Below, one piece after another: positions 6,322 through 51,613 of a stretch of DNA of 64,000 nt. This DNA is from a plasmid, in the sequence record AP025670.1; one strand, 5' to 3'. Each line of letters starts with the position of its first letter. Positions within the stretch are counted from its first letter, which is position 1. Under the pieces are notes generated by a model. It saw nothing but the letters and a program-made list of their open reading frames with translations. It did not search any database and had not been told where the DNA came from. Position numbers and translations under genes: made by a program.

Positions 6322-7161
6322 ATGAGATCACAATCGCATTTTGTAGAAACTGAAGCTATAAAGATAGTCCACAATCAGATACCCAGTAAAAATTGGGTGT
6401 TACGTTCCATTGGTGAAAGAGATTACGGCTCAGATTTCATGATTGAGCTTTTTGATAATAAAGAATCAACTGGTGATTGTTTTTTTGTACAATCCAAAGG
6501 CACTGAAAAAACATTTACAGAAGATGTAAAAATCAGCTTTCCTGTTAACACTATAAAATATGCAATGCTATTTAACGTACCATTTTTTTTGTTTTATACG
6601 TCTATCACTTCAAAGCAAACAAAATTTATTTGGTTACAAAAATATACTAACTTAGTGCTTAATGAAAAAAATTGGGAAGATAAAAAGTCAATAACAATCT
6701 ATTTTCCAGAAGAAAATGACCTCTCTAAAAATAGAGAAAAAATAATCAAATTACTTGCAAATAGCCGTGCAGTTAATGATTTTATATCATTTAAGCATAC
6801 AATCGAAAATTTGAAATTTTGGGGTGAAATGGTCATATATAACAATGATTATTATCATGGCAGTAAATGCATAGAATTATGTCACAAAATCAATGACATG
6901 AAAAATGTAATTTTATATGCATCTGAACTATATGTTGATGATAGTTGCCCTTTTGAAATGAGAACTCAGTATCAGAAACTTAGAATTAATAAAATGATTT
7001 CCACATTTAATAAATTCATTAAATATAAAAAAACAACAAATAAAAAGATTAACTTTATTAAAAAACAATTTGAAATATTAGATTGCATTTGTAATGACAT
7101 TATTTCTTCATCAGAATTAGAAAGATGGGGTTATGAGTCTGAAGCCTTAATTCCATTTTAA
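6322..7161 (+). CDS. DUF4365-like predicted PD-(D/E)xK nuclease-domain protein
   Basis: The N-terminus ETEAIKIVHNQIPSKNWVLRSIGERDYGSDFMIELF...FFVQSKG fits the DUF4365 / restriction-endonuclease-like D..(D/E)xK pattern, assigned from memory. The C-terminal 150 aa is unknown. Confidence 0.45.
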   Translation: MRSQSHFVETEAIKIVHNQIPSKNWVLRSIGERDYGSDFMIELFDNKESTGDCFFVQSKGTEKTFTEDVKISFPVNTIKYAMLFNVPFFLFYTSITSKQTKFIWLQKYTNLVLNEKNWEDKKSITIYFPEENDLSKNREKIIKLLANSRAVNDFISFKHTIENLKFWGEMVIYNNDYYHGSKCIELCHKINDMKNVILYASELYVDDSCPFEMRTQYQKLRINKMISTFNKFIKYKKTTNKKINFIKKQFEILDCICNDIISSSELERWGYESEALIPF

Positions 7162-7181: not shown

Positions 7182-8192
7182 ATGAGAAATTTAACCACAT
7201 GGACTTGTTCCGAAATAACAAAGTTGATTGGGACTATTGACGAACCATTCTTCATTGAAAAAATATGCAAATTTACCGGACGTAGTGTAAATGATGTCCT
7301 CTCTAAATTGTTGCACATGGGATTGTGTGAAATAAACTATAAGGATAATAAGATATCTACGGCTAGGAATACAAATTTAAACCATCTCATTCCTTATTCA
7401 TCATTTATTCCTAAATTATTAGAACTTGGTTGGATATATGAGTTATTAAATAGGGAGGAATCTCTTAAAGCCCCCAAGTGGTGGGTAAATAATGATCAGT
7501 TCCCTATAAGTAACACTATCGAATTGAATCGTAATGAAACAGTATGGGTTAATGAGGAAATTCATACAGTTATCTCCATGATACAAAACAAGATGAACCT
7601 AAGCTCAATCGCAAATAAAATACATAGAAATCAATCATCTATTACCGCAATGTTAATAGATCTTGGTATTTTAGAATGCATTGATAAACAAGAAATCTTT
7701 TTGTCTGAAGTTAATGAATTGAAACTTTCAAAGTATACATTTAATAATGCGCTTGTTCTTATTAATCATGGATGGGTTGTTACCAACAATAATTTATCTG
7801 CGCCTAATTGGTGGCTTGAAAATAACAAGGATAATAAGAATGTTCATAATAGCCACTACGATGAAAGGAAAGAAATAACCGGTAATGATAGCAGACAATT
7901 GTATATGTTTATTAAATCAGAATTAGAGGGCATACTAAACACTATTCATGAAAATAAGCGTATCGAAGAATTGTCAGATGTAACGTATTTAGGTTATACA
8001 CTTGCAGATTTAACGACCTACATTGGTATTACTTCAGTTAAGGTAGCAGGGCAGGTCACAAAGAACAATAAAACCCACATGAGCTATTTTATGGATAAAC
8101 CTTATAATATAAAGAAAATGTTGATTAACTTTGGTTGGAAAGTTTCAGATGATTCATTAGCAGCTCCTGAATGGTGGTCTAATGAAGAATAA
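7182..8192 (+). CDS. hypothetical protein with three internal ~105-aa repeats, each an HTH-like segment plus GW...AP-x-WW motif
   Basis: The three repeats end in KAPKWWVNND, LSAPNWWLENN and LAAPEWWSNEE. Each is preceded by LGWIYE, HGWVVT or FGWKVS, and by a helix-turn-helix-like stretch. Confidence 0.5.
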   Translation: MRNLTTWTCSEITKLIGTIDEPFFIEKICKFTGRSVNDVLSKLLHMGLCEINYKDNKISTARNTNLNHLIPYSSFIPKLLELGWIYELLNREESLKAPKWWVNNDQFPISNTIELNRNETVWVNEEIHTVISMIQNKMNLSSIANKIHRNQSSITAMLIDLGILECIDKQEIFLSEVNELKLSKYTFNNALVLINHGWVVTNNNLSAPNWWLENNKDNKNVHNSHYDERKEITGNDSRQLYMFIKSELEGILNTIHENKRIEELSDVTYLGYTLADLTTYIGITSVKVAGQVTKNNKTHMSYFMDKPYNIKKMLINFGWKVSDDSLAAPEWWSNEE

Positions 8193-8604
8193 ATACATCT
8201 CTTTCATTCAAATTATTTTTTTTACCGTTGCTTGTGTATATCCAGCGTATTTATTAATACGCAGAAAAAACATAATTGATATTTCCATGTTAATATTTAT
8301 TGTATTAATTGCAGTAATTGGAGATTTTATTGAGTGCATAACATTAATTGAATTATCTAAGATGTTAGCATCATTCTTTCTTATTGCAATTTATGTGAAT
8401 TGCTACCGCAGCTATTTTAAGTACTCTAAAAGTAATATTGATTTAATTAGTTTTAAAGCAGTAGATAATAAGATGGGGTATCTTGTTTTTTCCAGTGAAA
8501 CTATATGTTATTTCTTGCCTTTAAAAATAAGTAGCCACTTTAATATGTTATGGTTTTATGGATATTTGAAAGCCATAACCATGCACCTTCAAAATAGAAA
8601 GTGA
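8182..8604 (+). CDS. hypothetical membrane protein
   Basis: 140 aa, strongly hydrophobic. Its start overlaps the stop of the preceding gene. Confidence 0.35.
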   Translation: MKNKYISFIQIIFFTVACVYPAYLLIRRKNIIDISMLIFIVLIAVIGDFIECITLIELSKMLASFFLIAIYVNCYRSYFKYSKSNIDLISFKAVDNKMGYLVFSSETICYFLPLKISSHFNMLWFYGYLKAITMHLQNRK

Positions 8605-8684
8605 TACTTTTAAGACTGTTTACTAAGAAAAAAGATACCATATAACGGGTACATTGCCTTTTTAATTTCTGAAGGCTGAAGCTC

Positions 8685-9434
8685 ATGAACTTCATAAGTA
8701 CCCTTATTCTTGCACTTATCCTACGAATTCTTTACCTCATATATCGAAAACGTAAGCCTAGTTTTTATACTGTTAGCTTGGTAATAATATCAGTTATTGT
8801 GTGGTCCGTTAAATCCTACCTATTGGACTATTACATTATCCCAACATCCTCTATGGCACCGACATTAAAAGCCGGTGATCTCATTTTTGCAAAGCCGGTT
8901 GACACGCAAAAAGAGCAATTGATGCGTGGAGATATCGTGATTTTCCGAGCTCCTGCATTCCCTTCATTCATTTATGTAAAACGCATAATCGGATTGGCTG
9001 GCGATACTATCACTTATGCCGATGATAAGTCAGTCCAGATCAACGGAAGGATGATCGGGCAGCTAAACCATCATAATGACCATACGAGTACCTATCAGGC
9101 GCTTCAGGAACGTAATGCGCAACAATATGAGTACGTCATTGATAACCGTAAACCATTCGTTAAGCCAATTTATACACAATGGGTAATCCCTGATGGATAT
9201 GTTTTTGTTCTTGGCGATAACAGGGATCACTCATGGGATTCACGGTTTTTTGAAAATGCAGTTGGAACTCCAAGGCATTTGCGAGGGCTTGTTAAAAAGG
9301 AACTTTTGATAAGCCGGTATTTAGCCACGGCTTTTACACTTGAGTTTATGAAAAGCGATTTTGATATAGGGGAGAATAGCTTAAAAGTAATTTCTGAAGC
9401 TCAAACGGCAGAGGGGAATGATGGGGATAAATAG
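8685..9434 (+). CDS. signal peptidase I (S26 family; LepB/TraF-like)
   Basis: N-terminal transmembrane segment. Catalytic-Ser box SSMAPTLKAGD. The KR in YVKRIIGLAGD and the motif GDNRDHSWDSRFF are conserved S26 boxes. Confidence 0.8.
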   Translation: MNFISTLILALILRILYLIYRKRKPSFYTVSLVIISVIVWSVKSYLLDYYIIPTSSMAPTLKAGDLIFAKPVDTQKEQLMRGDIVIFRAPAFPSFIYVKRIIGLAGDTITYADDKSVQINGRMIGQLNHHNDHTSTYQALQERNAQQYEYVIDNRKPFVKPIYTQWVIPDGYVFVLGDNRDHSWDSRFFENAVGTPRHLRGLVKKELLISRYLATAFTLEFMKSDFDIGENSLKVISEAQTAEGNDGDK

Positions 9435-9771
9435 AAGCTGTATCGCATTAGTTTGCTTTTTCTTGTCATCTTGTGGTTCTACCACAGGGGCGATCACTAC
9501 ACACGAGCATCTTGTGACGCAAGCCACACAAGATAAGCATGTCAGTTCAGGTGGCTTCGACAGAGTAGCTGATACCTATGTACTGGCAAGAGAGATTACT
9601 GGTCTTGAATCCAACGAAATAAAGCAACTCTATGAGGTGAAGGGGAGTGACAACACATTAATAAAAATTGATATGGCATCTATACCATGCTCGATATTGC
9701 TTAAAAAGAACACAAGTCAAAGTAGTGAGATTTGGCTTATAACTGATATGGGTTGCAATGAATATTTATAA
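9418..9771 (+). CDS. putative lipoprotein
   Basis: A signal peptide ending FFLSSCGS forms a lipobox-like Cys. Overlaps both neighbouring genes. Confidence 0.4.
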   Translation: MMGINRSCIALVCFFLSSCGSTTGAITTHEHLVTQATQDKHVSSGGFDRVADTYVLAREITGLESNEIKQLYEVKGSDNTLIKIDMASIPCSILLKKNTSQSSEIWLITDMGCNEYL

Positions 9772-10327
9772 AATCTCAGTAATCAGCTCCCTTTTATTTT
9801 CTTCTTTGTCATACAGCAAACCTATTTTTATAGGAGATTCACTTACCTATGAGATAGCTAAAGGGTACAGCACAATCCAAGCTGTTGATGCTCGATACAA
9901 AGTAGGTAGCGGATTATCCACAAAGAATATCCTTGATTGGCAGAGATACGCAGAGCAATTCAGTTTTGAAGAATACGATACCGTTTATGTGATTCTCGGT
10001 ACTAACGACCATGTTCAAATATCAGAAAAAGAAAAGTACACCTCTAAAGTTCGGCATTTTATCCAAACCATAAAAGCCAGAAACCAAAATGTAATCTGGT
10101 TACTTCCTCCAACCCTTAAAGACACCGCCAAAAACAGACTATTAGATAACACTCGGCAAGCCATAATGACGGCTTCGCAGATAGAGGGGATCACCACCGT
10201 AGATACACGAACGGTTCTTGGTGAAACATACAAGGATGTCATAGATGGGACAACAGTTCGCACAAAGGATGGAATACATATCACTCCAAACGGAGCCTTA
10301 CTTACCGTGACACAGCTACTATTTTAG
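9758..10327 (+). CDS. secreted SGNH/GDSL-family hydrolase
   Basis: Signal peptide, then block I IFIGDSLT (GDS(L)), and a C-terminal DGIHITPNG (DxxH catalytic block). Confidence 0.6.
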   Translation: MNIYKISVISSLLFSSLSYSKPIFIGDSLTYEIAKGYSTIQAVDARYKVGSGLSTKNILDWQRYAEQFSFEEYDTVYVILGTNDHVQISEKEKYTSKVRHFIQTIKARNQNVIWLLPPTLKDTAKNRLLDNTRQAIMTASQIEGITTVDTRTVLGETYKDVIDGTTVRTKDGIHITPNGALLTVTQLLF

Positions 10328-10344
10328 TAAATTGGAATGTTGTA

Positions 10345-11280
10345 ATGAGAAGAAAGCGTAGATTTAAGAAACGAAATCCCTATGTAACTAATATGAATAT
10401 TGCATTTATATTCTATATGACCACTCTGGTATTTCTTAGATTTGATTCTATTGCGAGAGTTTTAACTTTAGTAATACCTTTATTTGCTGTTTATATATTG
10501 TCACCTAGCAGCAAAATATTGAGGTTACACAAGAGAAAGAAACCTGAATGGGCTTCAGTGGGAATCAAAAGAAATGCCCCTCTATTAAACCCTCAAGTTG
10601 CATTAGTGATAATTGCTGTTACCACAATAACTGTATTTTTTCTTCGTTATGACCATGTAATAACAACGAAAATCATACAACTGATATGGGGAGATATAAA
10701 AACAGCATATGCTGATATTTTCGGGAAAAGCAGTGCGAATAAATTATTCTCTCTGAGGAATATCCCAGTTTGTACATATTATACATTCCATATATTACGT
10801 TCATGCGTTGCATTTCTGCTCGTGGCTTATTCAGCAAGTGTCTATTTTCGTTATAAACAACAAACTATGTTTAAAAAGGTACTTTTTAATGCCACCTATC
10901 ATGAAGATGCATTGCAATTTATCCGAGAATTATCATGGCGAGAATTTGAGGAATTTATAAGAGAGTTATTCAACAGCCTTGGGTACAGAGCTACTGTCAC
11001 TAATTATGGTCCAGATGGTGGGAAAGATATCATTATGGAACGTGATGGAATCAAAGTTTTCGCTCAATGCAAACACTGGAAATCTGACAATGTAGGTGTT
11101 GCTATCGCCCGTGAAATGGTTGGTGTACTAGAAGCAGAACCCGAATTTAAGCATGTATTTCTAGTCACATCAGGTAAGTTTTCTAACGATGCAGTTCTAT
11201 ACAGTCACAGAACATCTGACCGTCTGACACTCATGGACGGAAAAATGATAGCCGATAAATTATTGCTGTTAAGAAAGTAA
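10345..11280 (+). CDS. membrane-anchored Mrr-like (PD-(D/E)xK) restriction endonuclease-domain protein
   Basis: The N-terminal ~170 aa is hydrophobic with multiple transmembrane helices. The C-terminus SWREFEEFIRELFNSLGY...YGPDGGKDIIMERDGIKVFAQCKHWKSDNVGV matches the Mrr catalytic core (D...D/E-x-K). Confidence 0.6.
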   Translation: MRRKRRFKKRNPYVTNMNIAFIFYMTTLVFLRFDSIARVLTLVIPLFAVYILSPSSKILRLHKRKKPEWASVGIKRNAPLLNPQVALVIIAVTTITVFFLRYDHVITTKIIQLIWGDIKTAYADIFGKSSANKLFSLRNIPVCTYYTFHILRSCVAFLLVAYSASVYFRYKQQTMFKKVLFNATYHEDALQFIRELSWREFEEFIRELFNSLGYRATVTNYGPDGGKDIIMERDGIKVFAQCKHWKSDNVGVAIAREMVGVLEAEPEFKHVFLVTSGKFSNDAVLYSHRTSDRLTLMDGKMIADKLLLLRK

Positions 11281-11357
11281 TCCGCTTTTAGAACCTTTGC
11301 GCCCTATTCGTAGGGCGTAATTCTATAACATATATCAGATACACGTAACACAGATTA

Positions 11358-12332
11358 TTGAGGCTCAAAATGACGGATGTTTCTTCCAATGCAAAAAAAA
11401 ATGAAAGTAAAAAAGGACTTGGTTTTCTTCTGAATAAAAAATCCATGATTGCAGTTGCAGTTGCAGCAGGTGCAATAGCAGTATTTGTTTTACTCAAACC
11501 AGCAACAGACACGACAGAAATTGATGTTAATTATTATAGTGACGTTGAAACCTCTATTCCTGTTTTTAACAATCCCAAAGAGGCAGAACCAGAATCGAAC
11601 AGTGCCGAGAACGTAACTAAAACCGATTCTCCGGCATCAGAGGTTAAATCCGACTCTGTTACAGGAGATGTTGCTAAGACGCTCTCAGAAGCAGAACAGG
11701 AGCATTCTGACGTAACAGAAACACAGAATCCATCAGATAGCGAACAAAGCATTAATGGCATGCTTGAGCATGTTAGCGAAGCTGCTACTTCAGTAGTGGA
11801 ACACACTCAGGCATTAAGTACAAACTTTACAGGTCAACCACCTGCACCGGCAGCTCAGGAGCTCAGTGATGTGTATTACAGCAATCAGGCTCCAACACAG
11901 CAACAAGACTTTAAAAACGTATTTGATGCAGCATTGGAAGAAAGAAACAAACGCCTTGAAAATGACCAAAACCTCGACTATGTAGGGAAGCAATTAACGA
12001 TCCCATACGCGCCAAATTCACAAACTAAAGTCTATCTCTACCGTAATTTTGCAGTGAAAATTTTCCTACCTGCACAATCCGAAGCCGTTAAAGAGCTCAA
12101 TTACTTCATCAATGGCTCAGACCATGACGATCATTTCGACATCAAATTATTACCAAATAACATTTTGCTCTTATCGAAAAAGCCAAGTTCTGAAGTGTGG
12201 GGCGGCACAGACTTATTCATCACTCATGGTAAACAAAATTATACATTTATATTACTTAGTGCGAAAAACCCTGATGAAAGAACTGATTCTATTCATTATG
12301 AAAAAGTAAGCGCAAACACAACCAATAAGTGA
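11358..12332 (+). CDS. hypothetical protein with an N-terminal transmembrane segment and an acidic, low-complexity S/E/T-rich middle region
   Basis: 324 aa. Transmembrane helix AVAVAAGAIAVFVLL, then an acidic region. Followed by a strong terminator. Confidence 0.4.
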   Translation: MRLKMTDVSSNAKKNESKKGLGFLLNKKSMIAVAVAAGAIAVFVLLKPATDTTEIDVNYYSDVETSIPVFNNPKEAEPESNSAENVTKTDSPASEVKSDSVTGDVAKTLSEAEQEHSDVTETQNPSDSEQSINGMLEHVSEAATSVVEHTQALSTNFTGQPPAPAAQELSDVYYSNQAPTQQQDFKNVFDAALEERNKRLENDQNLDYVGKQLTIPYAPNSQTKVYLYRNFAVKIFLPAQSEAVKELNYFINGSDHDDHFDIKLLPNNILLLSKKPSSEVWGGTDLFITHGKQNYTFILLSAKNPDERTDSIHYEKVSANTTNK

Positions 12333-12354
12333 TCGTTAACTCTCCAAAACTACC

Positions 12355-12379
12355 TTACAGCCCCTTTTTGGGGCTTTTT
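12355..12379 (+). terminator. rho-independent terminator
   Basis: cagcccctttttggggcttttttgg: a GC stem followed by a T-run, directly after the stop at 12332. Confidence 0.6.
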
Positions 12380-12389
12380 TGGATTCAAA

Positions 12390-12947
12390 ATGGAAAAATA
12401 CACGAGTCTGAGAACAATAGCTGACGATATTCAGATGTACCCATATTCATATCTATTATGCCGACAATTATTAAAAAAGGGATACATCGAGGGCGAGGCT
12501 GTGATTGGTATCTATAAGCAAGAACTGGTCCACACTCCGGAGACAGATTTAGCTTACACAAACAGCATTTTGCAATACTCATGGATCGAGACAAAGGCTC
12601 ATACCGTCATAGACCCTTTAATTGATTTTCGCGACGGAAACCGAGAAATTAACCTAATCGAGAGAGACAAAACACCAAATTACCATGCAGGCGTAAATCC
12701 CTTGAAAATTACGAAGGAATTACTTCCAGAACATCGTTGCTCTGATGAAGTGTTTACACTAATGAGAGGGGCTGAATCAGAGGCTATGAGGCGAATTTTA
12801 GGTTTAGAACAAAACCCCAATGGGATCACAATGACTGAAGCGGCTTACATAGCAAATTATCATACGTGTGATTACTTAGGATATGATAGGATTATTTTGA
12901 ATTTTTTTATTAAACACAAATTAACACCAATCATAATAAACGAATAG
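12390..12947 (+). CDS. hypothetical protein
   Basis: 185-aa ORF with no recognised motif. Confidence 0.35.
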   Translation: MEKYTSLRTIADDIQMYPYSYLLCRQLLKKGYIEGEAVIGIYKQELVHTPETDLAYTNSILQYSWIETKAHTVIDPLIDFRDGNREINLIERDKTPNYHAGVNPLKITKELLPEHRCSDEVFTLMRGAESEAMRRILGLEQNPNGITMTEAAYIANYHTCDYLGYDRIILNFFIKHKLTPIIINE

Positions 12948-12995
12948 TCGCTGCTTTATTCAAGAGTGAAACATAAACCATATAAGAGATAAATT

Positions 12996-13310
12996 ATGCC
13001 AGATTTAGAATATTACTTACTTTCCCCTGCTTCACACAAAGGTGTAGAAAACGAACATGCAAACTCAGGTAGAATGTTAGACCGATATTTGAATACTAAT
13101 GGTCGCTGGAGTGCATTTCCACCCAAGAAGAATATTAGCTTATTATATTGGAGCTCAAGAGAGGAAATATTAAAAGCCGCAGAAATAGCAATCAATTCAG
13201 GGCGAGATGTGCATATTTGCAAAATATCAACAAATGGAAAAGTAAACCAAGATAGAATGATTAATTACAACGAAAATCATTTACCCTGCCTAACAGGATA
13301 TATAAAGTAA
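12996..13310 (+). CDS. hypothetical protein
   Basis: 104-aa ORF with no recognised motif. Confidence 0.3.
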   Translation: MPDLEYYLLSPASHKGVENEHANSGRMLDRYLNTNGRWSAFPPKKNISLLYWSSREEILKAAEIAINSGRDVHICKISTNGKVNQDRMINYNENHLPCLTGYIK

Positions 13311-13361
13311 CTACTAGCAAAATTAAATGCAGATATGTGGAATATATCTGCATTTATTTGT

Positions 13362-13799
13362 TTATTTTATAAATTTAAATTTATGCTCATCTGATTTAGA
13401 ACAATGTTTTTTATCACAAAACTCTCTTTCTTTGTTTATAAACTCACCTAGATATGTGTAAAATCCATCCGGTTCTTCATTTACAGATTTTTTTAATTTT
13501 TCGTATGCCTCTTGGTTCATCGGCGTATACTTCAATAGCAATTGGTCTAAGTATTCAATTTTATTACTTGCTATTTTTCTGCCAAATACTCTATATGCTA
13601 TATATCCAGCTAACAATGATAGAAATAATGATAGCCACAGATTAAATTCAGCTTTCAAAGGTAGAAAAAAAATTAATAAGAAAAATATCAAGGCTGCGGG
13701 TCCATACGATGCTTTTGCCAATTCTCGGTTTACTGTCATTTCATCTAGTTCATAGCATCGTTGAATTTGGTTAAGACTGGTTCTATTTTTCTTTGACAT
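13362..13799 (-). CDS. hypothetical membrane protein
   Basis: 145 aa with two central hydrophobic helices. Confidence 0.35.
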   Translation of the reverse strand: MSKKNRTSLNQIQRCYELDEMTVNRELAKASYGPAALIFFLLIFFLPLKAEFNLWLSLFLSLLAGYIAYRVFGRKIASNKIEYLDQLLLKYTPMNQEAYEKLKKSVNEEPDGFYTYLGEFINKEREFCDKKHCSKSDEHKFKFIK

Positions 13800-13856
13800 A
13801 CTAAATCCTCTTACTGCTGATAGTATTATATTAATTACTATTAATGAAAAAGTTGG

Positions 13857-15392
13857 TTAGATTTGTGTTGTACTATTTAAAAAAATGTGTAGTTCTTCCG
13901 GAGTTACTATTGGAATGTTTCTTTTTTTGTCTTTTCTATATTTTATTAATGAAATTATTTCCATAATTACCATTGATACCGATAGAGCTTTCGTAGCTCT
14001 GGTTACTGCAACGTATAACAAATTTAATTCATCATTAATAAATATTAGATTCTGTTTTTGTTTTGGTGTTTTCTCAATATATTCAACTAATGAAACATAA
14101 TCATCATCAATCTCAATATATTCCCATTCAAGTCCTTTCGATGAATGTGCAGTTACAAGCGTTAAATCAGCATCATTGTAATTATTAACTGCTGCTTCTT
14201 TAATTTTATCAACCAGCTCTAGAATATCAGGCTCATTTTCAATTAGGTGTATCGTCCTTTTCAACGTATTGTCGCCTGAGTTCTCTGCAACGCTTACAAC
14301 CCGATCCCAATTTGGATAGTCGTATAAAAATGCTTTTCTCTTAATCATTTTAGTATTGCCGATATACAGATAGTAAAAATCAGCAATATCGTCTAAAGCA
14401 TACCTATCAATACCACCTACGAAGAACACTTTTTTACCGTTTCTTCCAGCGTCAATTGCATTGATCAACACAGATAGATTGGTGCGTGAAATCACAGTTC
14501 TAGGGAAGATATTCTTGATTTCAGCTTTATTTATGAGCTTATCAGTAATACCGGTCGTTTTAAGGCTTACAGTCTCCCCTTTTAACATCAGTATGGCATT
14601 TGCGATAGCTGCTACACATCGTCCAAACCGATATGACGTAGTTAGACGCAATATCTGAGCTCCATCACGTACAGAGGCATCTAGGGCATCATTTGCCCCA
14701 CGCCAGCGGTTGATCATCTGGTGCGTATCACCTACAAAGATTCGTTTGCATTCACATTTATCTAGCATTGCCTTCGTTACTAAGTTGGCATCCTGTGCTT
14801 CATCAAACAAAATGATATCGAACCATGTATGTAGGGGAGGGGCTACTAACTGAAAATATTTTATGTAAAAGTCAGGGGGAGCAGGGAAGTCACTGTTAGG
14901 GTCAGCTTGTAATTCAAAAATGAGTTTTGCATTTTCTAATGCGCATTTCCTAACATTTTCAGCATGTTTTTTACCATTCCCTGTGTTCTCTGTTGGAACG
15001 TGATGTATCTGTAACGAATAATCAGCAGACCTATAATAATTATTTAGAGTCTCGATTATGAGAAATTGCAATTGAACAGATGTAATATTTAGTAGCCGAG
15101 CCACATCGAACCCATTGAAATTAAACTTCATTTTGTACTTCAATTTTTTCAAATACCGATATGCCATTGCATGAGTGGTGATCACTTTGGTATTAGAAGG
15201 AAATTTTTGTGATGCTTCTATCTGTATGCCTTTGTTGTAAGCTAAGTACAAAATACGTTTATCCGGATTACGCTTTGCCAATTGAGTCAATATGAACGTT
15301 TTGCCTGAACCTGCATAAGCCTGACAGCAAATATACTTTTCTTCAGAGGCTAAAATGGCTTCTTGTTCTTGAGATAAGATTATCTTTGACAT
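13857..15392 (-). CDS. small UvrD/Rep-like SF1 DNA helicase (paralog of the helicase at 50102..51613)
   Basis: Walker A AYAGSGKTF, then RILYLAYN, DEAQD (Walker B) and a C-terminal VTAHSSKGLEW. Clearly homologous to the 510-aa helicase in the backbone segment. Confidence 0.7.
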   Translation of the reverse strand: MSKIILSQEQEAILASEEKYICCQAYAGSGKTFILTQLAKRNPDKRILYLAYNKGIQIEASQKFPSNTKVITTHAMAYRYLKKLKYKMKFNFNGFDVARLLNITSVQLQFLIIETLNNYYRSADYSLQIHHVPTENTGNGKKHAENVRKCALENAKLIFELQADPNSDFPAPPDFYIKYFQLVAPPLHTWFDIILFDEAQDANLVTKAMLDKCECKRIFVGDTHQMINRWRGANDALDASVRDGAQILRLTTSYRFGRCVAAIANAILMLKGETVSLKTTGITDKLINKAEIKNIFPRTVISRTNLSVLINAIDAGRNGKKVFFVGGIDRYALDDIADFYYLYIGNTKMIKRKAFLYDYPNWDRVVSVAENSGDNTLKRTIHLIENEPDILELVDKIKEAAVNNYNDADLTLVTAHSSKGLEWEYIEIDDDYVSLVEYIEKTPKQKQNLIFINDELNLLYVAVTRATKALSVSMVIMEIISLIKYRKDKKRNIPIVTPEELHIFLNSTTQI

Positions 15393-50101: not shown

Positions 50102-51613
50102 ATGAAACAACTTCCTCCTGACACACCAGAACAATCACTGATCACTCAGTACAAAGGGCCTCGCCTTGTCGTTAAGGCCTACGCTGGAACGGGTAAAACC
50201 ACGACACTGGTGAAGTACGCCCACAACAACCTCGATTCACGTATCCTCTACTTGGCATACAACCGGGCTATCCGCGATGAGGCAAGAGAAAAGTTTCCTG
50301 CAAACGTAGACTGCAAAACGTCCCACCAGCTTGCCTACGCCACTATAGGACGGGGCTACCAGCACAAGCTCTCCGGCAACCTAAGGCTCACCGATATTGC
50401 CCAAGCGGTGAATACCAAGAACTGGACGTTTGCCAAAGATATTCTCGATACGCTCAACGCCTTTATGTGCAGTGCAGACATGCGGATTCTTTATACGCAT
50501 TTTGCTCGCGCCGATACGGGTAAAGTGCTTACGTCCAAACAGGAGAGATACCAAATCCAGGTAGTCGAAGGTGCTGAGCTCATATGGAAACGGATGACAA
50601 ACGTTCAAGATCCGTTCCCGACCGTACACGACTGCTACCTCAAACAGTATCAGCTCGGGATGCCGAATCTGTCTCGCCGGTACACCACCATTCTTTTTGA
50701 TGAGGCACAAGACGCTAACCCCGTAACAAGTAGCATCGTCCTACAGCAGAACTGCAAGGTAATCCTGGTTGGAGATCGCCACCAGCAGATCTATAGGTTC
50801 AGAGGCGCAAACAACGCCCTTGATAGCAAAGAGCTCATGAACGCCGACCAACTCTATCTCACTCATAGCTTCCGCTTTGGCCCTAACGTTTCCCTGGTGG
50901 CAAACGCCCTTCTTGAACTCAAAGGTGAAACACGACCTGTTGTTGGCCGGGGACCAGCAGATCAGGTAGTCATGTTTTTACCAGGTGATGTGGGCCATCG
51001 CGCAATACTTCACCGAACCGTCATGGGGGTTATAGAGACGGCGCTCTCTGCGACCGAATCCGGAGCGAAGGTTTTCTGGGTCGGTGGAATCGACGCTTAC
51101 CAGATCAATGAGCTCCAGGATTTGTACTGGTTTTCGATGGCAGAGCCAGACCGGGTAAAGAATAAGAAACTGCTTGATGAGTATGAAGACTACTTCGAGT
51201 ATCAAGAAGTAGCGAAGGCGACCAAAGACCCTGAGATGATGAGGGCTGTCAAGATCATCAACAGCTACGATGAAATCCCTGAACGACTCACCACTCTACG
51301 ACGCAATACAGTCAAAGAAGAGTTTGGGGCTGACATTACGGTCTCAACAGCTCATCGGTGCAAAGGGTTGGAGTGGGACTTTGTTCAGCTCTATGACGAC
51401 TTTCCGGATGTCCTGGACCCAGAGCTCGACCCAATGGCCCGTGACGATGAAATAAACCTGCTCTACGTTGCATCCACCAGAGCGATGCGAATCCTTGCGT
51501 TGAACAGCGCTGTCGAGATGGTTATCCGCTACATCACCCAAAAACGCATGGTCGAGAAGCAGATGAAGATGGCCGCAGAAGCGACAGAAGTTGAAGAGGA
51601 CACGACCAAATAG
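50102..51613 (+). CDS. small UvrD/Rep-like SF1 DNA helicase (backbone copy)
   Basis: AYAGTGKTT, RILYLAYN, DEAQD and VSTAHRCKGLEW. Homologous to 13857..15392. Start at the Met preceded by AGGGGG. Confidence 0.7.
   Translation: MKQLPPDTPEQSLITQYKGPRLVVKAYAGTGKTTTLVKYAHNNLDSRILYLAYNRAIRDEAREKFPANVDCKTSHQLAYATIGRGYQHKLSGNLRLTDIAQAVNTKNWTFAKDILDTLNAFMCSADMRILYTHFARADTGKVLTSKQERYQIQVVEGAELIWKRMTNVQDPFPTVHDCYLKQYQLGMPNLSRRYTTILFDEAQDANPVTSSIVLQQNCKVILVGDRHQQIYRFRGANNALDSKELMNADQLYLTHSFRFGPNVSLVANALLELKGETRPVVGRGPADQVVMFLPGDVGHRAILHRTVMGVIETALSATESGAKVFWVGGIDAYQINELQDLYWFSMAEPDRVKNKKLLDEYEDYFEYQEVAKATKDPEMMRAVKIINSYDEIPERLTTLRRNTVKEEFGADITVSTAHRCKGLEWDFVQLYDDFPDVLDPELDPMARDDEINLLYVASTRAMRILALNSAVEMVIRYITQKRMVEKQMKMAAEATEVEEDTTK

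Follow-up and report, generated by a model that had tools for sequence, protein, structure and literature searches.

Genes A and B of this study lie side by side on the plus strand of a plasmid (sequence record AP025670.1), of which a stretch of 64,000 nucleotides, here called the window, was analysed. A resembles several described nucleases of the Mrr type. Epona, a single-gene system of the Vibrio cholerae superintegron, joins an N-terminal transmembrane (TM) domain to an Mrr_cat domain, as A does, and gives anti-phage activity (bioRxiv 10.1101/2024.07.02.601686). However, Epona is an integron cassette with two TM helices described as holin-like, whereas A is a conserved plasmid-backbone gene whose product has four predicted TM helices and no holin match. 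PDC-S02, an unvalidated candidate defence family, agrees with A in where the Mrr domain lies and roughly in protein length (192-303 of 334), and is the best PADLOC match of A (E 1.6e-12; residues 192-303, the nuclease domain, align), further matches being the ZorD nuclease domain and type IV restriction endonuclease (REase) models. EcoKMrr, a methyl-directed type IV restriction enzyme, belongs to the same catalytic domain family and its D-x3-D...Q-x-K motif aligns with that of A, but it is a soluble protein with an N-terminal winged-helix DNA-binding domain where A has a membrane domain. Beyond these nucleases, both genes have homologs on the IncT plasmid Rts1, namely orf189 for A and orf191 for B, and Murata, Gotoh and Hayashi deleted all Rts1 genes except repA (DNA Res 2024; PMC10838148). 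These authors assigned orf191 to mating-pair formation, while no homology was reported for Orf191 and Orf189 was not discussed.

Comparison with these systems suggests that A and B are neighbouring, functionally separable backbone genes of a pPrY2001-type accessory transfer operon, with A acting as a membrane-tethered DNase and B as an accessory of the type IV secretion system (T4SS), a reading to which we assign a probability of roughly 0.55. The accessory role in T4SS/mating-pair formation was demonstrated for Rts1 Orf191 and would extend to B by homology, while we infer the topology, co-transcription, substrate and biological role of A.

The putative membrane nuclease A and the predicted bitopic protein B

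The features of the two genes on which the argument draws are as follows.

10345-11280, plus strand: gene A, predicted inner-membrane-anchored Mrr_cat nuclease of 311 amino acids, Rts1 Orf189 homolog (open reading frame (ORF), Pfam, BLASTP, ratio of non-synonymous to synonymous substitution rates (dN/dS))
10345-10899, plus strand: membrane domain of A, residues 1-185, with a basic N-terminus and four predicted TM helices (hydropathy, lysine/arginine distribution)
10921-11256, plus strand: Mrr_cat PD-(D/E)xK domain of A, residues 193-304 (Pfam; alignment with Escherichia coli Mrr and homologs)
11014-11016, 11026-11028, 11065-11067 and 11071-11073, plus strand: putative catalytic residues D224, D228, Q241 and K243 of A (invariant alignment columns)
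11370-12332, plus strand: gene B, predicted bitopic membrane protein of 320 amino acids, Rts1 Orf191 homolog (ORF, homolog alignment; alternative TTG start at 11358)
11439-11495, plus strand: predicted single TM helix of B, residues 28-46 numbered from 11358 (hydropathy 2.31)
11523-11957, plus strand: acidic S/E/T/A-rich low-complexity linker of B, predicted to be periplasmic and disordered (charge, predicted local distance difference test (pLDDT))
11970-12311, plus strand: conserved C-terminal beta-sandwich of B, predicted to resemble the VirB9 N-terminal domain (NTD) (AlphaFold2, Foldseek)

The nuclease domain of A is recognised by the Pfam profile Mrr_cat (PF04471) at residues 193-304 with an E-value of 5.4e-23 and 81.7 bits against a cut-off of 21, and the match spans profile positions 1-113 of 115, which places A in this family. 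Its motif residues read G222-P-D224-G-G-K-D228 and A240-Q241-C-K243-H-W, and the D-x3-D...Q-x-K centre is intact, because D224, D228, Q241 and K243 occupy invariant columns when A is aligned with E. coli K-12 Mrr (catalytic domain) and eight further homologs. An earlier note on this DNA had quoted this motif and had described A as an Mrr-type PD-(D/E)xK domain fused to a polytopic membrane domain; the motif proved to be real and conserved, the profile score and the four TM-like segments bear the description out, and both ORFs lie where the note had placed them. Compared with a sister plasmid of ~92% DNA identity, A shows 15 synonymous and 2 non-synonymous changes (dN/dS 0.036), with 0 non-synonymous changes in the nuclease domain, and the C-terminal domain of B has a dN/dS of 0.03 in the same comparison; both genes are maintained under purifying selection. 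PGAP places the start of A at 10393, but we favour position 10345, since the Xenorhabdus, Arsenophonus and Photorhabdus homologs keep the basic N-terminus MRRKRRFKK. A search of PDB sequences with the nuclease domain returned only a staphopain (E 0.005), which was discarded as a chance match.

Hydropathy delineates four TM-like segments in A, at about residues 17-35, 38-54, 84-102 and 146-168. Eight lysine or arginine residues lie ahead of the first segment and eight within the loop at 55-83, and on account of this distribution and the positive-inside rule A is predicted to be N-in/C-in with a cytoplasmic nuclease domain. The four-helix layout and its charge pattern recur in the Rts1, Providencia, Arsenophonus and Xenorhabdus homologs. 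Pfam detects no Mrr_N or winged-helix domain in A, and residues 1-192 match nothing recognisable in Pfam even at E-values up to 10, in agreement with the earlier proposal that the membrane domain stands in place of the winged helix of Mrr. When residues 1-192 were searched with phmmer against 1.84 billion representative proteins only 3 close relatives were found, and tblastn of the membrane domain against plasmids returned matches from the same lineage only.

The ORF of B extends from 11358 to 12332, with the ATG at 11370 as the likely start, as in the homologs. The N-terminus is basic (net +6) and hence predicted to be N-in, and residues 56-200, in which S, E, A, V and T are abundant, have a net charge of -19, so that the description of B as a single-pass protein with an acidic S/E/T-rich stretch also stands. 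AlphaFold2 gives the acidic linker a pLDDT below 50. The length of this linker differs among near-identical plasmids, whose products range from 312 to 382 amino acids (proteins P0012-P0015), and two database variants of B have odd C-terminal extensions that resemble frameshift read-through.

It is the C-terminal ~115 residues of B that are conserved in the homolog alignment; an additional word-index protein search added few further homologs. The AlphaFold2 model of full-length B was unusable (pLDDT 38), and the C-terminal 132 residues were modelled alone with a slightly deeper alignment, which gave a pLDDT of 78 and a predicted template modelling score (pTM) of 0.72. In a Foldseek search of the PDB with this model, all of the top 8 matches were chains of the VirB9-NTD family (E 7.5e-7 to 5e-4), the best being the TrwF/VirB9 NTD of R388 (7o3t_B; E 7.5e-7, target TM-score 0.71, root-mean-square deviation 2.5 Å over 105 columns) and the others including Xanthomonas VirB9 (6gyb_B), CagX and chains of the Dot/Icm T4SS, with generic Ig-like domains ranking below them. 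The Pfam profile CagX/VirB9 (PF03524) gave sub-threshold matches in 3 of 6 members of the B family, all Rts1-type (17-23 bits against 34.2; profile positions 6-104 of 198), and no match for the B protein of the window itself. With hhalign, the B domain showed no similarity to the plasmid's own TraK and a weak one to a single Xylella VirB9 sequence (probability 16%, E 0.0016); since these matches are absent or weak, the VirB9 assignment rests on the fold search and the sub-threshold Pfam matches. While the modelled domain shares the beta-sandwich fold of the VirB9, TrwF and CagX NTDs, B lacks the C-terminal, VirB7-binding domain of VirB9 that sits at the outer membrane and would instead be held in the inner membrane by its N-terminal helix and long acidic linker; moreover, the plasmid encodes TraK separately. 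Given the missing C-terminal domain and a profile score below threshold, B is, as modelled, VirB9-NTD-like and not VirB9, and it is best described as a putative inner-membrane-anchored protein in which a disordered acidic tether reaching into the periplasm carries a VirB9-NTD-like module.

The corresponding Rts1 block and relatives on other plasmids

A tblastn comparison of the Rts1 block with the window gave collinear matches for orf185 (lepB), orf187, orf189, orf191, orf192, orf193, traA and dsbA, with the same gene order and strand beside lepB, the uvrD-like gene, traA and dsbA. Because of this collinear homology, the A/B block corresponds to orf185-orf193 of Rts1. The neighbours of A and B in this block are as follows.

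8685-9434, plus strand: LepB-type signal peptidase, Rts1 Orf185 homolog (Pfam Peptidase_S26; 39% identity to Orf185)
9418-10327, plus strand: lipoprotein of 117 amino acids (weak match to Rts1 Orf187) and secreted GDSL/DUF459 esterase, just upstream of A
12359-12385, plus strand: intrinsic-terminator-like hairpin and T-run after B
12390-12947, plus strand: Rts1 Orf192 homolog of 185 amino acids (32% identity, E 5e-27)
13857-15392, minus strand: UvrD-like helicase, Rts1 Orf193 homolog, then the traA pilin gene and a DsbA-like gene

In BLASTP, A aligns with Rts1 Orf189 at 26% identity over 300 amino acids (E 4e-34), residues 4-302 of A being matched to 19-296 of Orf189 with the membrane domain included. 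Both proteins share the four-TM domain and Mrr_cat, but only Orf189 adds a C-terminal zinc ribbon (zf-C4_Topoisom); A stops at residue 311 and lacks the CxxC...CxxC segment seen in the Rts1, Citrobacter and Providencia versions, and the pPrY2001/Arsenophonus/Xenorhabdus lineage has lost this ribbon. Similarly, B matches the C-terminus of Rts1 Orf191 (34% identity, E 2e-16), with which it shares the succession of TM helix, acidic linker and beta-domain as well as the operon position. The tblastn search with the Rts1 block found no homolog of orf186, orf188 or orf190 in the window, and, whereas A and B adjoin, Rts1 has the ParB gene orf190 between orf189 and orf191. The GDSL/DUF459 esterase, which shows a weak match to PatB-like peptidoglycan O-acetyltransferase, stands where Rts1 has orf186/orf188 (window 8685-10327 compared with Rts1 locus L008:1712-3954), and a Xenorhabdus locus (L006) has both a 196-amino-acid ORF after lepB and the esterase.

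The published deletions separate the two genes functionally (PMC10838148; coordinates and lengths in its table agree with the loci examined here, with orf191 starting at 132842 and encoding 410 amino acids and orf192 encoding 221). Deletion of orf191 reduced conjugation to 0.056 of wild type, with 0.51 on complementation, and mobilisation of pSU4628 to 0.031, drops of ~20-30-fold, and the predicted VirB9-NTD-like fold of B fits this role in mating-pair formation. Deletion of orf192 reduced conjugation to 0.018 and left mobilisation unaffected, so that this gene is needed for efficient conjugation and not for mating-pair formation, and the orf191-192 double deletion transferred at 0.00065 of wild type. 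For the flanking genes, Orf185 was required and orf186 essential for mating-pair formation, and loss of orf193 left conjugation at 0.93 of wild type. The deletion of orf188-190, which takes out the nuclease gene orf189, still conjugated at 0.38, and these genes fall outside the 32 conjugation genes (Supplementary Table S1 of the same paper). Homology together with these deletion data indicates that orf189, the counterpart of A, is dispensable for Rts1 conjugation. In addition, orf191 (L008:6122-7354) on high-copy pUC18 could not be used for complementation, as the clone inhibited the growth of its host (PMC10838148), which points to toxicity of the B-type protein at high levels.

Full-length relatives of A at 43-47% identity were found only on Arsenophonus and Xenorhabdus plasmids and on one metagenomic contig, and each of these loci has the order lepB ... 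A - B - ORF of ~190 amino acids. The C-terminal domain of B reaches further, to 205 plasmids in tblastn, among them Rts1 and large MOBH plasmids of Citrobacter, Klebsiella, Enterobacter and Providencia. In these MOBH plasmids the position of A is taken by a gene of ~357 amino acids annotated as 'restriction endonuclease', whose translation comprises a four-helix membrane domain of ~170 amino acids, Mrr_cat and a C-terminal CxxC...CxxC topoisomerase-type zinc ribbon, and the same block recurs in those of Citrobacter, Klebsiella and Providencia. A tblastn search with Rts1 Orf189 matched 479 plasmids, 254 of them typed conjugative.

Outside the MOBH group, the relatives that were translated vary in their membrane part. 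A protein of Xylella pXF-RIV25 has two TM helices and Mrr_cat, one of Nitrosococcus plasmid A adds the zinc ribbon to these (38% identical to Orf189 over 190 amino acids), and a protein of a Bacillus mycoides conjugative plasmid (L014:5983-6645) has one N-terminal hydrophobic helix, Mrr_cat and the ribbon. The layout of the last is shared by a protein of Staphylococcus aureus pWBG637 (L011:5905-6468), whose short hydrophobic N-terminus lies below the hydropathy threshold used. Both of these Gram-positive genes end transfer clusters, directly after genes for topoisomerase IA and for a DUF3991/TOPRIM (primase) protein; no statement on the function of the pWBG637-type Mrr_cat/zinc-ribbon protein was found in the pWBG749 paper (PMC4652767). 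A word-index protein search retrieved proteins with two TM helices, Mrr_cat and the zinc ribbon from metagenomes, a scan of genome contigs with a single peptide pattern returned loci of the same lineage and Mrr_cat-only relatives in assorted metagenome-assembled genomes, and PHROGs holds small families in phages with an N-terminus joined to Mrr_cat. Proteins that combine TM helices with Mrr_cat, with or without a zinc ribbon, are common on plasmids of several phyla, and the architecture of A, judged from sequence, is not very unusual. The earlier note took it to be more unusual than it is, as the combination is widespread, already stands among defence candidates (PDC-S02) and has been validated once (Epona). 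A stands apart in its four-helix membrane domain and in its fixed place in a transfer-associated operon.

A few copies of A are incomplete. The Photorhabdus sp. RM322S copy (P0003, 202 amino acids) stops just past the SWREFE motif and has no nuclease domain, and two plasmids (H52, H55) keep only part of the gene; these truncated copies imply that A is dispensable in some hosts.

What A and B may do

Under the favoured reading, A would be made together with the transfer apparatus and would cut DNA at the cytoplasmic face of the inner membrane, its substrate most plausibly being incoming foreign DNA, either of a phage or of a rival plasmid that enters by conjugation. In that case A would act in defence or exclusion as a single-protein nuclease that is dispensable for transfer, comparable to Epona and the PDC-S02 candidates, while B would be an accessory part of the mating-pair-formation machine and not a sensor for A. 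The defence or exclusion role is a best guess, drawn by analogy with these systems.

Several points weigh against this assignment of A. The transfer figure of 0.38 belongs to a three-gene deletion assayed in E. coli-to-E. coli matings only, and not to A itself. The likeness to Epona is one of published domain description and not of sequence, and the PADLOC and PHROG matches of A cover the nuclease domain only; moreover, the one PDC-S02 representative that was tested gave no protection against T4, T5 or T7. The topology that would place the nuclease in the cytoplasm is predicted from hydropathy alone. Finally, defence genes are usually variable cargo, whereas the operon position of A is unchanged even in homologs of 26% identity; a role linked to transfer would explain this better than would generic defence.

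A first alternative, less likely although worth keeping in view, is that A is a conjugation-linked DNA-processing factor at the T4SS, which trims or clears DNA in the channel or aids establishment in the recipient. The need for such a factor may be conditional, arising in native hosts, in surface mating, in interspecies transfer or in the presence of competitors. This idea draws on the fact that A keeps its place in a transfer-associated operon even between MOBH plasmids that have diverged deeply, on the genes with one TM helix, Mrr_cat and zinc ribbon that directly follow TOPRIM primase/topoisomerase genes in Gram-positive transfer operons, on the share of matching plasmids typed conjugative (254/479) and on the zinc ribbon of the topoisomerase IA C-terminal type, which we take to be of the single-stranded-DNA-binding kind. 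However, the orf188-190 deletion still transfers, the ribbon is lost in the pPrY2001 lineage, A is now and then truncated in otherwise intact plasmids, and no conjugation system is known to need a PD-(D/E)xK membrane nuclease.

Here we also speculate, as a bolder and rather doubtful variant, that A is a gatekeeper nuclease physically associated with the plasmid T4SS, possibly docked via B/Orf191 or another mating-pair-formation protein, that destroys DNA entering through or beside the conjugation apparatus. Its targets, as an equally doubtful part of this proposal, might be genomes of pilus-specific phages, retrotransferred DNA and T-strands of rival plasmids. If this were true, the TM-Mrr_cat genes in unrelated MOBH and Gram-positive (pWBG749-type, Bacillus) transfer operons would represent a general, undescribed self-protection module. 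A conjugation-linked role of either kind, conditional factor or gatekeeper, keeps some weight, since A holds its place in the operon and genes like it recur in the transfer operons of Gram-positive plasmids.

The earlier note had proposed a sensor/effector couple. In its full form, B would sense an envelope event such as phage adsorption or mating-pair contact in the periplasm and activate A, the two genes making up an abortive-infection or exclusion system. The genes do lie next to each other on one strand in the loci inspected from plasmids of each lineage, plasmids positive for B and for A are nearly equal in number (60/60 in Providencia, 59/58 in Citrobacter, 26/26 in Proteus and 19/19 in Klebsiella), both products are membrane proteins of complementary topology, and the high-copy orf191 clone inhibited host growth. 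Yet deletion of orf191 lowers mating-pair formation and deletion of orf188-190 does not, the conserved domain of B has a structural fold of the T4SS, a ParB gene splits the pair in Rts1, relatives of A with TM helices and Mrr_cat occur elsewhere without a B-like partner, and B is retained in H52 and H55, in which A is truncated. As for co-occurrence, it is explained by shared backbone synteny with lepB, orf192, uvrD and traA. On these grounds the couple is not supported, and we regard it as unlikely.

Similarly improbable is a suicide or addiction toxin, whereby membrane damage or depolarisation would release or activate the nuclease against host DNA, in abortive infection or post-segregational killing. 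Epona, being described as Mrr_cat fused to a holin-like two-TM domain, lends it some colour, as do the other addiction modules of the plasmid backbone, mazEF and hok, but A shows no holin-family match in its membrane domain, is accompanied by no antitoxin-like small gene, and is part of a long envelope/transfer operon and not of a toxin-antitoxin cassette. That A is a catalytically dead relic serving only as a membrane scaffold is highly improbable, as Mrr_cat far outscores its sub-threshold match (22.9 bits, cut-off 27) to NA-iREase1, a family of inactive REases, the four motif residues are invariant and the nuclease domain is free of non-synonymous changes between the sister plasmids.

Returning to the reading of A and B as separable backbone genes, the two are ordinary genes of the backbone, one of them uncharacterised, and do not make up a new kind of system; on homology, A is a lineage-specific variant of the membrane-anchored Mrr_cat nucleases and B a member of the experimentally defined Orf191 family of mating-pair-formation accessories. 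Rts1 Orf191, which was reported without homology, hereby gains a proposed structural assignment as an inner-membrane-anchored VirB9-NTD-like domain, and Orf189-type nucleases are flagged as a conserved, unexplained passenger of conjugation operons. Among Enterobacterales, Proteus and Providencia included, plasmids of the pPrY2001 and IncT types spread resistance genes such as NDM-1. If their transfer operon encodes a conserved membrane nuclease, this could influence the range of phages and of competing plasmids that the hosts let in, a matter of interest for phage therapy and for plasmid ecology.

Operon and plasmid context

At 8000-14000 the window matches pIB_NDM_1 and further pPrY2001-like plasmids of Proteus and Providencia with 100% identity over 6 kb; these plasmids are typed MOBH/MPF_F and conjugative, and PMC6737455 calls two of them, pPp47 and pPm60, pPrY2001-like. 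A and B belong to a run of same-strand genes, mostly for envelope proteins, in the order 140-amino-acid membrane protein, LepB-type signal peptidase, lipoprotein, secreted GDSL/DUF459 esterase, A, B, hairpin and 185-amino-acid ORF, and a mobH relaxase gene follows on the plus strand beyond the UvrD-like, traA and DsbA-like genes. The hairpin after B (AGCCCC-TTTTT-GGGGCT at 12359-12375, then TTTTTGG) agrees with the terminator noted earlier at this place. No promoter-like or terminator-like site was predicted on the plus strand between the GDSL gene, A and B, this hairpin being the first terminator-like one, and A and B are probably co-transcribed within the operon. Neither annotation nor Pfam scans of the neighbouring genes showed a methyltransferase, be it in the window, where its absence had been supposed from the sequence, or in the loci of Rts1, Citrobacter, Providencia, Arsenophonus and Xenorhabdus. 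A restriction-modification context for A was rejected on this ground.

Two further genes of the region recall known defence proteins. The UvrD-like helicase by traA, which is 39% identical to Rts1 Orf193, has many PADLOC matches to GajB, the Gabija helicase (best E 1.4e-17). Between an integrase gene and the lepB block, at 6322-7161 on the plus strand, lies a gene for a DUF4365-type PD-(D/E)xK-like protein that matches the PADLOC model Aga_REase-PNTD (E 8.6e-7) and phrog_22932; the validated V. cholerae system Divona likewise has a DUF4365 domain. The Arsenophonus and Xenorhabdus loci have no such gene called at the equivalent place, and for this reason it is possibly inserted defence cargo.

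The window as a whole is a mosaic. About 1-28 kb are pPrY2001-type backbone of ~36% GC, about 28-46 kb a mer / class 1 integron / sul1 resistance island of 54-64% GC, and about 46-64 kb a second transfer backbone (traF, traH, traG) of ~50% GC, which is probably of IncC type and holds a second UvrD-like gene at 50123-51529. Overall, two MOBH plasmids seem to have joined here into a cointegrate similar to LC507075.

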